A stretch of 64,000 nucleotides of DNA from an uncultured cyanobacterium (GCA_963697335.1 CAVONQ010000001.1:1-64000), one strand, 5' to 3'. Positions 2,939 to 5,794 are shown, counted from the stretch's first letter. A program made the numbers and translations. The notes: generated by a model from the sequence alone, not told the origin.

Positions 2939-5794
2939 ATGGTTATGGAGATTATTCTGGAGAATCTCAAACCGACGCGAAACGGTCATTTACGCCTGAT
3001 TCCAAACATAAACGTCACTGGGCGAGTACTGCCAACTGACGTTTCTTCTAACGATCTCACATCGAATGACAAATTAGATAATGAGCGCGCTGTGCGCAAA
3101 TTAAGAGACAAGGAGATTTGTTCTGTCGTTATCGATATCGGTCAAGACGAGTGGGAAAAACATCCTAACTTAATATTGGAGGTAAGTTTCGATCCAGAAC
3201 TTTTCCGAATACTAAACCAGAGTGGCTTACCTCTTGATTCACAGGGGCCGCAGCCCGTAAAAATTGATTTGCATGAGGCCAAGAAGGACAGCACCAAAGC
3301 GCGAGGTCTGCAGTTCTTCCTGGAAGCACAGACCTTTTGGGGGTCACCCCTCGTTTCGAATGACGCGAACCCGTCTGTAGCGTTCCGAATTCTTGACGGG
3401 AGTAATGTGCTTCTCTCGCAAAGTACATGGAACAACAGTGACATACGCACAGCAGACGTTATTCTTTTGGGGGATAGTGCACCGCCAGAGCGTATTTATA
3501 TGTGTGAATTGGAACAGAATCAACCCTCCGTGCGCGAACTAAGCGAAGGGGTAAAGGCTACGGGCGTGCCATTAACCCTAGTTCCAGTTGAAATCGGTAT
3601 GGGCGACACTTGGCTGCAGGACCAATTTCAAGTTGGCTATACCGCTACTCCAGAAGGTAGTCAGCGAGTAATTTTTCATTTGCCTCGAATGGTTAATGAT
3701 TCTGCTATGGTCCCGGGCTCACCCAATTTGCGTAACTTCACCGATAGCTATTTCCCATCCGAATCGATTGGCGTTCTCAAGGACTTTTGGCGGCTTAAGA
3801 TAACGATTAAGGACGGGATAGCGTCGAACCTGCCTTTAGAAGTAGATAAGACTTATAGTTTGTATAAGCAATTGACACTCATTATTAAACTGCTGAAAGC
3901 TATCGCTAGCCTAATTTTTGAAATCGACGGAAAGAATCCAAATCTGCTTTTTAGTATTTCAGATCTTTACCAAGTGCGTTTAGCGGTTGATAGCTTGCGG
4001 GCTAAGCTGCTCGGCTACAAAAACCTTAAATCCGAGCAAAGAACTAAGGTGAAGAGTATTAAGCCTATTCTGGATGCTCTATCGAAAGTTTTGGATCGAC
4101 AGGATGACAAAGTGATTTTGACGGTGACCGTTGATGGGAATCCGCATCAATTCATGTACGATTCCCAGAATTCGAATTTACTTGAGAGGCTTTTTATTTC
4201 TCTTTTTAATATTCACAGCCCTCGGAACTATGGTGGCAATATCGAGGTATCCCCTCCCTGCTCAAGTGCTAGGTACGGCAAAATTCTGGCCGGTTCAATT
4301 ACTTCTCAAGAAATACGGAACTTCCTGACGTCCCGAGGCACAGCTCACCCGCTCGCAATGGTGTATACAGGTTGGCTAGAGGTCGGCCATATTGATGAGA
4401 TTGCTGCCTTCGCCCCCAATCCAAATGGTGGCTTTTGCATTCTCCGCGCTTCGCCGAAACTAGCTGTGGACATGCTAACACGCCTCAAAGCAGAACAAGC
4501 TCGAGGGGTTCGGGTGACTCGATTTTTTCGGGGAAAAAAGTGGATGCACGAAAGCGCCGGTGGTGCCACTGATCCACATCTGCCACCAAACACATTTCGC
4601 CGAATGATCGAATCTAAAATCTATGATTTGAAGGGATTCGATCCGAAGAATCAAAAATACGCAAAGCCTACATTTGGCGATTTTGCCTATCATGATGACC
4701 GCCAGTTTCTGGTCTTCAATAAGCTAAATAATGTCAATGCACGTTATGCCGCCATGATTCCCTGTGCCGATTTGCTGACAATTTGTAGGGAGACTAATCG
4801 TACAGTCGAAGACCTATTTCTTTCCAGTAGTTATGCGTATGCTGATTTCACTGGATATGCCGCCTATTATGACGACGATGTATATCGAAGTGAGGCTGAG
4901 CCGTTTCGATTGGACAAGGTGTTGTCCCGGGAGTTCTCTGGTATTAGCGTATATCCACTCCCTGTCCTTTTCGATTGGGTTACGGATCTTCTGAATAAAC
5001 AAACCAGCGCCATCATACCTGATGTGGTTAACTTTCAGACATTGGGAAAGCATGTTCTTGTTCCCCGACCTTGCGGTGCGCGTATGCCTGTCGCCGATGC
5101 AGTCAACTTCATATCGGACCTACTGGCTAAATGGAGGTATCCTAAAACTTCTGTCGACGAAAACTACATTCGTTCTAGAGGCCTTGATAAAACGTGGTAT
5201 TGGACCAGTGCCTCCGAGAGGGTCAATCGTGCCGCGATCGGTAATACTCCTACTGACTTCGATCCTGAATTTGAAGAGCTGATGCGCTCTAAAGCCAATA
5301 TTATGTACAGCGAAAATCTTCAAAATGCAGGTATGGAAGCTATTTCGCCGCTTCCTGTCCTTGATATCTATGCACTTCAACACGCTGGCGACCAGTTCAC
5401 GAATCATCCTGTCTCAGAGCCGGAAACGCTTTACAGAATTGCGGGTTACTTTAAAGATGGGTTCGAACAGTTTACCAACTTCCCTGTTGACTATTGTGAG
5501 GGTGATACTGAGGACTCTCATCCAAAATTTGATCAATACGAAACGGATATCAAGGATGTCATGAAGAAAATCAACGATGCCAATCCCGGCGTCTTCGACC
5601 AGTACGGAAATATCATTTCGAAAGACTGGATACGAATCTCCATACCAGAAGACACTGTCGATGTGTTTGAGCTATATACACAAGTCCTGATGGAATCGCT
5701 TGGATTGGAAGTGCACTGGGTGGATTCCTGGTATTACCATACTCATATGGGAGGGATACATTGTGGAACGAATGTTTTGCGTACTTTTGCCTGA
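2939..5794 (+). CDS. Protein-arginine deiminase (PADI/PAD-family citrullinating enzyme) with large insertions
   Basis: Collinear PAD motifs: DTWLQD (D228), GNIEVSPP, WLEVGHIDE (H484/D486), PDVVNFQTLGKHVLVPRPCG, YHTHMGGIHCGTNVLR (C942). The true start may be ATG 2945. Confidence 0.9.
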   Translation: MVMEIILENLKPTRNGHLRLIPNINVTGRVLPTDVSSNDLTSNDKLDNERAVRKLRDKEICSVVIDIGQDEWEKHPNLILEVSFDPELFRILNQSGLPLDSQGPQPVKIDLHEAKKDSTKARGLQFFLEAQTFWGSPLVSNDANPSVAFRILDGSNVLLSQSTWNNSDIRTADVILLGDSAPPERIYMCELEQNQPSVRELSEGVKATGVPLTLVPVEIGMGDTWLQDQFQVGYTATPEGSQRVIFHLPRMVNDSAMVPGSPNLRNFTDSYFPSESIGVLKDFWRLKITIKDGIASNLPLEVDKTYSLYKQLTLIIKLLKAIASLIFEIDGKNPNLLFSISDLYQVRLAVDSLRAKLLGYKNLKSEQRTKVKSIKPILDALSKVLDRQDDKVILTVTVDGNPHQFMYDSQNSNLLERLFISLFNIHSPRNYGGNIEVSPPCSSARYGKILAGSITSQEIRNFLTSRGTAHPLAMVYTGWLEVGHIDEIAAFAPNPNGGFCILRASPKLAVDMLTRLKAEQARGVRVTRFFRGKKWMHESAGGATDPHLPPNTFRRMIESKIYDLKGFDPKNQKYAKPTFGDFAYHDDRQFLVFNKLNNVNARYAAMIPCADLLTICRETNRTVEDLFLSSSYAYADFTGYAAYYDDDVYRSEAEPFRLDKVLSREFSGISVYPLPVLFDWVTDLLNKQTSAIIPDVVNFQTLGKHVLVPRPCGARMPVADAVNFISDLLAKWRYPKTSVDENYIRSRGLDKTWYWTSASERVNRAAIGNTPTDFDPEFEELMRSKANIMYSENLQNAGMEAISPLPVLDIYALQHAGDQFTNHPVSEPETLYRIAGYFKDGFEQFTNFPVDYCEGDTEDSHPKFDQYETDIKDVMKKINDANPGVFDQYGNIISKDWIRISIPEDTVDVFELYTQVLMESLGLEVHWVDSWYYHTHMGGIHCGTNVLRTFA

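Follow-up and report, generated by a model that had tools for sequence, protein, structure and literature searches.

A foreign, probably integron-type cassette pairs a divergent PAD-fold protein with a widespread partner protein in an uncultured cyanobacterium

The first 64 kb of contig C1 from the genome of an uncultured cyanobacterium (GCA_963697335.1, CAVONQ010000001.1:1-64000), the whole stretch being called the window here, begin with two long genes on the same strand, which are followed by a short palindromic site (Table 1). The second gene encodes P0001, a protein with the fold of protein-arginine deiminases (PADs or PADIs), and the first encodes P0002, a protein that belongs to no known family. 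We consider it probable that both genes are carried by one integron-type cassette of 5,928 bp with a G+C content (GC) of 46%, which comprises window positions 1-5931 and 3 nt of contig C7. The first-pass annotation of the window had named only the PAD gene as cargo, whereas the cassette holds both genes of a two-gene module.

Table 1. Features at the start of the window (positions are window positions)
Feature	Position	Strand	Remarks
5' leader	1..27	+	Shine-Dalgarno-like AAGAGGAG before ATG; cassette starts 3 nt before window position 1
Gene 1, P0002, 968 aa, no known family	28..2934	+	conserved core at residues ~386-967
Gene 2, P0001, PAD-fold, 951 aa	2939..5794	+	start 4 nt past gene 1 stop; predicted PAD_M-like N-terminal domain and insertion-rich PAD_C
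attC-like site	5857..5931	+	62 nt past PAD stop; bottom-strand DNA fold -28.3 kcal/mol
Gap between attC-like site and resumed homology to relative G012, ~180 nt	5932..6115		no match
Host flank, two small lipoprotein-like genes	6153-6590, 6610-6954	+	83% identity with G012

The host is cyanobacterial, as had been assumed from the beginning: a transfer-messenger RNA (tmRNA) gene at window 10912-11214 (-) scored 301 bits with the Rfam model cyano_tmRNA, and the genome contains six matches to Photo_RC. The assembly consists of 2.58 Mb in 18 contigs of 66-70% GC each, and the contrast between these values (0.66-0.70) and the 0.44-0.47 found over window positions 1-6000 bears out the earlier view that the segment is foreign to this host. 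Contig C1 begins at position 12509 of the locus sequence L009, and C1:1-5363 is shared, with 99.5% identity, by the 3' end of contig C7, so that C7 provides the upstream context of the cassette. The overlap contains 34 differences, which are clustered in the last ~2.2 kb of C7 and look like an unpolished contig end. In principle, the low-GC segment could result from mis-assembly or contamination, which would be compatible with its position at a contig end, with the imperfect overlap of the ends and with disruptions of the reading frame in the C7 copy. However, the host contig C7 (227 kb) extends into the cassette by 5.4 kb, C1 runs from the junction into the host DNA with the tmRNA gene, and the contigs are broken exactly at a repeat with two copies, which explains the break. 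Moreover, related genomes carry other low-GC cargos behind the same sequence element, in one case at the same locus, and the contamination of the assembly was estimated at 1.63%, all of which makes an artifact extremely unlikely. The PAD gene copy on C7 shows bursts of substitutions and indels besides its frame disruptions. Similar overlaps of 5-11 kb with 97-99.6% identity were found between the contig ends C7/C1, C3/C18, C12/C13, C17/C4 and C1/C14, and gene calls on such overlapping contig tails would be wrong.

P0001 matched the Pfam family PAD (PF03068) in three stretches with E = 1.5e-35 and 123.4 bits (cut-off 25), and no other Pfam family at E ≤ 0.1. Of the two Pfam models that had been suggested for checking its identity, PAD therefore recognized the protein, but PAD_M did not, and a match to PAD_N was missing as well. 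The closest relatives among all PDB sequences were human PAD4, PAD3, PAD1 and PAD2 (E = 4e-24, 87.8 bits). A similarity to PAD4 extending beyond the catalytic residues, which the first-pass annotation had noted, was fully recovered in the HMMER alignment, where all four motif pairs were present (pperiymc/ppqevyac, dtwlqdqfqvgy/dqwmqdemeigy, gnievspp/gnlevspp and ggihcgtnvlr/gevhcgtnvrr). In an alignment of 33 full-length relatives, D228, R250, H484 and D486 were invariant and C942 was conserved in at least 90% of the sequences. D228, H484, D486 and C942 correspond to D350, H471, D473 and C645 of PAD4, and R250 corresponds to the arginine of FDSPR; the PAD4 positions were derived from the PDB-chain alignment with an offset of 3, which fits what we take to be the native numbering. 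An AlphaFold (AF2) model of P0001 (pLDDT 88.6, pTM 0.87) retrieved exclusively human PADs as top matches in Foldseek, with E = 1.2e-25 to PAD4. VIA-align superposed model residues 1-951 on PAD4 residues 113-654 with Z = 25.6 and a root-mean-square deviation of 3.2 Å over 477 aligned residues with 24% identity. Since this alignment begins only at PAD4 residue 113, P0001 appears to be composed of a PAD_M-like domain and PAD_C, without PAD_N, and it contains about 470 extra residues in three insertions. Pfam, Foldseek and VIA-align thus agree with the initial classification as PADI type and not as agmatine deiminase or PPAD. P0001 belongs, as a distant relative, to the protein-arginine deiminase superfamily and has retained its fold and its catalytic residues. 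It is probably an active, divergent enzyme of the PAD fold, and we infer that it deiminates arginine residues of proteins. The invariant residues Q229, Q231 and H247 align with E351, E353 and D369 of PAD4, which, together with E411, we presume to be calcium-site residues; E411 is kept as E436. As the acidic positions are replaced by Gln, Gln and His, P0001 is probably regulated differently from the animal enzymes. PAD-like proteins of this family are rare, with 48 matches that are nearly all metagenomic, the best of them at 63% identity.

According to Cummings et al. (2021, PMC8826395), animal-type PADIs consist of PAD_N and PAD_M together with PAD_C and are shared among bacteria only by SPM/NX cyanobacteria, and a cyanobacterial origin of the animal PADIs has been proposed. 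An animal-type PADI on an attC cassette would offer a route by which PADI genes, among them the ancestral gene of the vertebrate enzymes, could move between genomes, and the Pfam PAD match, PAD4 as the best solved relative, the cyanobacterial host and the proposed origin speak in favor of this scenario. Nevertheless, it is very unlikely to be correct, since P0001 has no match to PAD_N or the Pfam PAD_M family and is much more distant from the human enzymes than a genuine three-domain PADI. The PADI of Calothrix, used as a control, scored 531 bits with PAD in one stretch, 151 bits with PAD_M and weakly with PAD_N, and it aligned with human PADI2 from end to end (E = 1.4e-166, 559 bits), compared with 123 bits for Pfam PAD and 88 bits for human PAD4 in the same tests with P0001. 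In a quick IQ-TREE phylogeny of 45 sequences (LG+G4, 751 columns, several long branches flagged), which was calculated without metazoan, fungal and actinobacterial PADIs and contained Calothrix and Nostoc as proxies for the animal clade, a split supported at 99% in the Shimodaira-Hasegawa-like approximate likelihood-ratio test separated 11 rows, including all six compact PAD_M+PAD_C proteins, from 34 rows, including all 18 long or module-type proteins. P0001 is nested with the long module-type proteins and has the metagenomic P0003 as its sister (99%). This proxy tree suggests that the long module-type clade lies outside the clade of animal and SPM/NX cyanobacterial PADIs, and judged by its sequence, P0001 is not the animal-type enzyme, so that its earlier designation as animal-PADI-like had to be given up.

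With human PAD4 and PADI2 and with the three-domain cyanobacterial PADIs, P0001 shares the pentein-fold PAD_C, the same Asp/His/Asp/Cys residues and an immunoglobulin-like domain that superposes with PAD_M. It differs from them by the lack of PAD_N, by the ~470 extra residues, by a structural identity of merely 24% and by Gln/Gln/His at the acidic positions. Two-domain PADIs with a divergent PAD_M and PAD_C have also been described from bacteria and fungi, likely with a non-animal calcium regulation (PMC8826395). P0001 has the layout without PAD_N, and probably this kind of regulation, in common with these enzymes, but owing to its insertions it comprises 951 aa instead of ~600 aa, clades separately with other proteins of ~900 aa and belongs to a two-gene module.

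The partner in this module, P0002, matched nothing in Pfam, NCBIfam, PADLOC or PHROGs, but its family comprises 930 homologues from many phyla. PAD loci were gathered from genome contigs with an alignment as query; a single-protein query gave none. At 22 of 27 long-type PAD loci, a P0002 homologue is located directly upstream on the same strand. A partial match only was found at this position in L029, and in L034 (Leptolyngbya sp. PCC 7375) and L035 (Adonisia turfae) the homologue lies on the opposite strand, ~2 kb away. The latter two are filamentous cyanobacteria, and their long-type PADs have 944 aa. In contrast, no P0002 homologue was found upstream of the compact-PAD genes at any of 53 loci. 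Seen from the other side, a PAD-like gene lies downstream of the P0002 homologue in seven of 79 metagenomic loci. When 37 other genes downstream of P0002 homologues were scanned against Pfam, eight encoded patatins, two flavin amine oxidases and two PT-TG proteins, whereas PLD, Tox-MPTase4, Het-C, PhoD, GH5, LysM and ECF sigma factor were each represented by a single gene and 18 partners had no Pfam match. P0002 homologues thus precede at least ten unrelated Pfam classes in addition to PAD-like genes, and the pairing of the two genes is conserved at long-type PAD loci while the effectors are swapped across the P0002 loci. As the family is followed by interchangeable enzymes, P0002 would be the constant platform of the system, possibly a sensor or a delivery or pore component, and P0001 would be one of its many swappable effectors. 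A domain common to the N-termini of the effector classes was not found (five of 58 partners matched an N-terminal profile, and all five were PAD-like), and no terminal motif across the effector classes was visible by eye.

The structural model of P0002 is confident only for residues 30-360, which are helical, and for residues 600-775, which form a beta sandwich. Residues 469-494 alternate between hydrophobic and polar on both sides of a Gly-Pro turn, a pattern that hardly varies within the family, and we infer by analogy that this segment may resemble the hairpins with which beta-pore-forming toxins insert into membranes. A search of the ESM Atlas recovered the protein's own unnamed family only. 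P0001 and P0002 both lack a signal peptide and a clear transmembrane helix.

A constant gene combined with interchangeable enzymes, among them PT-TG, Tox-MPTase4, patatin and PLD, is also characteristic of polymorphic toxins and binary toxins. Unlike polymorphic toxins, the P0002 module has its effector on a protein of its own, its effector classes have no N-terminal adaptor in common, and an immunity gene is missing. Integron cassettes that encode phage defense are described in two recent reports (bioRxiv 10.1101/2024.07.02.601719; PMC12614218), and the P0002 module is likewise found on mobile DNA, namely in this cassette and in the locus L125, but it matches no known defense family. In L125, the module lies between an integrase gene and genes for MobC, a relaxase and a coupling protein (2438-3865, 9777-12970), which places it, by its gene content, on a conjugative or mobilizable element. 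With these conjugation genes, L125 is an exception among the module neighborhoods; insertion sequence elements occur near the modules in L129 and L020.

On balance, a role in biological conflict, either as a delivered toxin or in phage defense, appears to be the somewhat better supported function for this module. As a conflict system, it would act as a delivered toxin or by abortive infection in response to phages. Several observations weigh against such a role. Genes for secretion systems or defense were not recurrent among 111 neighboring ORFs (open reading frames) of 22 module loci (5-8 kb on each side), neither P0001 nor P0002 matched any family of PADLOC-DB 2.0 at E ≤ 0.01, and no immunity gene is present in the cassette, which leaves only 62 nt between the PAD stop codon and the attC-like site. 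In addition, two of the 27 long-type PAD loci (L021 and L033) have no P0002 homologue in the 1.2-1.7 kb of DNA upstream. The part of the conserved P0002 core between residues 386 and 600 was modeled at low confidence, and with the P0002 structure Foldseek found nothing at E ≤ 0.001 and a VIA-wide comparison only generic beta-sandwiches with a best Z of 7.8. Alternatively, P0001 could be a metabolic or housekeeping enzyme whose substrate is a guanidino compound such as free arginine or agmatine, with P0002 as a structural or regulatory partner. Pentein-fold enzymes do include many small-molecule amidinotransferases and deiminases, as stated in PMC8826395, and the lack of a signal peptide, a clear transmembrane helix and an immunity gene as well as the mostly ordinary neighboring genes would be in agreement with a metabolic function. 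However, the fold and the best matches are those of protein-arginine deiminases, including the PAD_M-like domain, the platform gene is paired with a repertoire of toxin type (patatin, PLD, PT-TG, Tox-MPTase4, Het-C), and the distribution is patchy across phyla, with an occurrence in just one of 32 genomes of the genus. A metabolic role is therefore unlikely.

The evidence that the two genes form a cassette comes from both of its ends. In the attC-like site behind the PAD gene, R'' (GCCTAAC, 5857-5863) is separated by an unpaired spacer from an L box, which contains two single extrahelical bases; a perfect stem of 13 bp (5880-5892 with 5897-5909) and R' (GTTAGCG, 5925-5931) complete the site, with the crossover predicted between G5925 and T5926. 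At the other end, the cassette begins at C7:221505 after the G of GTTAGGC, so that TTAGGC are the first bases of the cargo, and R'' is exactly complementary to these six bases preceded by G, as is required of a cassette that can be circularized. Nine other attC sites of the genus have the same layout of R boxes, spacers and extrahelical bases. In these nine sites, 83.8% of the cells in the alignment are paired, compared with 28-44% when the pairing partners are slid, and eight of 15 pairs change on both sides, although the structure was derived from individual folds of the same nine sequences and RNAalifold gave no consensus. The PAD site shares its terminal GAGC-GTTAG with the genus's other sites, and the hairpin is not followed by a T-run. 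A strict-motif attC detector found nothing, since R' has the sequence GTTAGCG here. CGCTAAC does not occur downstream on the + strand, so that there is no sign of the array continuing.

Directly upstream of the cassette lies an element of ~140-165 nt (C7:221346-221510), for which no Rfam match was found. In this genome it has a second copy at C16:1874-2014 with 97% identity, and among the relatives, genome G012 has four strong copies, G008 has three, of which one is truncated at a contig end, and G019 has one. In an alignment of nine copies from four genomes, the identity ends at ...GCTAATC-GTT| and gives way to complete divergence, and the left edge lies at G|TTGCTT. Within the element, L009:12371-12505 (= C7:221370-221504) constitutes a cassette of ~135 nt without an ORF but with its own attC, in which the 5' end TTGCTTAG is complementary to its own R'' CTAAGCAAC, followed by spacer, L-box, loop, L-box, spacer and GTT. 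This mini-cassette looks like the integron entry site of the genus. Cargo of lower GC is present behind nine of nine copies of the element, with 41-51% GC in eight cases and 56-58% in the case of C16. The exact R'' expected from the cargo's 5' end was found at a strong hairpin in four of nine cargos compared with 0.49 expected by chance (one of 70 in a swap control); three of the remaining cargos have one mismatch and two have weak hairpins.

An integron integrase gene is present in the same genome at C16:4662-5597, where IntI (TIGR02249) scored 466 bits with a cut-off of 265, and IntI was found above the cut-off in five of five relatives tested. In G008 and G019, intI is located ~170 nt upstream of the element on the same strand, and in G012 the distance is ~1.4 kb. 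A relaxed detector found no attC array beside intI on C16. Class 1 integrons have divergently oriented intI and attI; in the relatives of our host, by contrast, intI has the same orientation as the element and its cargo, with the element on the 3' side of intI. Integrons are present in Cyanobacteria, and a group of two or more attC sites that has no intI in its vicinity is referred to as CALIN (Cury et al. 2016, PMC4889954); an IntI of Synechococcus appears in the figure legends of PMC3108266. Like chromosomal integrons and CALIN, the PAD locus combines two co-oriented attC-type sites, a distant IntI, G|TTRRRY borders, complementarity of R'' and R' in the circularized cassette and foreign cargo. 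It differs from them by the ORF-less cassette of ~135 nt that precedes the cargo at every copy of the element, and the PAD cassette itself stands out with 5.9 kb, two long genes and an attC that is an outlier among the sites of the genus. At the end of another contig, a second copy of an integron integrase gene is broken into three matched pieces and contains a TAA stop (C15:5-680, -).

The proposal that the PAD gene is carried by an attC cassette is thus supported by the cassette boundaries, the element, the IntI and the complementarity of R'' to the 5' end, but only weakly by the score of an independent attC model. This leave-one-out covariance model of the genus sites, R1, ranked the PAD site first in the 64-kb window with exact ends, but only with 15.5 bits and E = 0.069, and a second match inside an ORF (6473-6525) was nearly tied at 15.2 bits. 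The site was absent from the nine matches at E ≤ 1 when R1 was applied to the whole genome, and a strict structural detector found one site in the genome compared with two in the reversed-genome control. It further weighs against a cassette that no intI is located near the PAD locus, that a sigma-70-like promoter was not found in the element and that a two-gene cassette of 5.9 kb is unusually large relative to typical cassettes. Considering these points, the segment might instead be an island inserted by another recombinase, such as the Xer-like proteins encoded on C16 and C2, or by integration targeted to the tmRNA gene, with the hairpin being a terminator or a chance palindrome. On C16, two ORFs for Xer-like tyrosine recombinases are indeed located between intI and the element (L010 2301-4264, -) and are duplicated on C2, the tmRNA gene, ~5 kb away, points with its 3' end towards the region, the support from the attC model is marginal and the crude detector performed no better than its control. 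On the other hand, the element copies cease to be homologous exactly at G|TT, the hexamer at the 5' end of the cargo complements R'' of the 3' hairpin here and in other cargos more often than expected by chance, and the hairpin is laid out like an attC, has extrahelical bases and a GAGC-GTTAG end and is not followed by a T-run. Moreover, no other recombinase gene is present in the ~170 nt between intI and the element in G008 and G019. We thus consider insertion by another recombinase to be rather unlikely. The duplicate of the Xer-like pair is located at C2:1-2456 (99.1% identity), and there is no counterpart to the pair at the G008 and G019 copies.

The integron-type reading would imply that the IntI of C16, or that of a relative, inserted the cassette behind the ORF-less cassette of ~135 nt, and the insertion point would then be a hotspot of CALIN type without its own intI. 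At the syntenic locus of G012, the same core gene is followed by the element, by 3.6 kb of other low-GC cargo and by the same lipoprotein genes, for which no Pfam match was found. Homology between the window and G012 resumes only ~40-60 nt before the lipoprotein start codon, and window positions 5932-6115 may be what is left of an older cassette or of the original target site. On C7, a sulfatase gene with ~58% GC (L009:10498-12132, +) separates the conserved core gene from the element. It is missing from the syntenic site of G012, was found at other loci in G002 and G019 with 83% identity and may be another insertion.

In other phyla, the GC content of the module matches that of its flanks. 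On the 3' side of the PAD gene, an attC-like hairpin was detected at one of 22 other long-type loci, where it overlaps the end of the coding match, and at none of 53 compact-PADI loci (one in the reversed control) and none of 50 metagenomic modules (one in the reversed control). The genus-specific model R1 found nothing in 1.08 Mb around 80 PAD loci. Carriage of a PAD module by a cassette was thus found only at this locus, and the suggestion that cassettes provide a wider mobility route for PADI genes was not supported. The same results speak against an animal-type PADI spread by integrons, and the word "integron" does not occur in PMC8826395. In its own genome, R1 found five co-oriented sites on C14:78438-83891 (+), which are 0.6-3 kb apart, and one on C2:311429-311513 (+) near the low-GC end of C2; these are probably further cassette arrays.

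Taken together, the likely explanation of the locus is a foreign two-gene cassette of integron type that carries a divergent effector of the PAD fold together with the P0002 platform as a conflict system. If this is true, the gene says nothing direct about how animals obtained their PADIs and an attractive link is corrected. Instead, it would reveal a large clade of long PAD-fold proteins that is tied to a partner gene, in a two-gene system with swappable effectors. Literature searches combining polymorphic toxins, arginine deiminases and patatins yielded no description of such a clade of PAD-fold effectors with P0002. The module would also represent the first role of citrullination in microbial conflict and thereby a new mechanism of a toxin or a defense system, and the boundaries of the cassette would delimit the minimal functional unit. 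More tentatively, the P0002 family might be an undescribed platform spanning many phyla that forms an autonomous two-gene unit for attack or phage defense, perhaps by beta-type pore formation or by sensing; citrullination would then be one of its tools, and capture in a cassette would indicate that the two genes suffice by themselves and move together, but we are inclined to regard this extended view as speculative. With respect to the host, the findings would point to a working-looking integron system in high-GC (68%) picocyanobacteria, composed of the genus element, satellite sites without intI and a hotspot with cargo that varies between species. Our literature search found nothing on integrons in picocyanobacteria. 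Between the cassette and the tmRNA gene, the window contains a gene for a cytochrome P450 at 8933-10633 (-) (Pfam E = 1.3e-62), and this whole stretch, whose 59-67% GC is below that of the core genome, may represent an older island.

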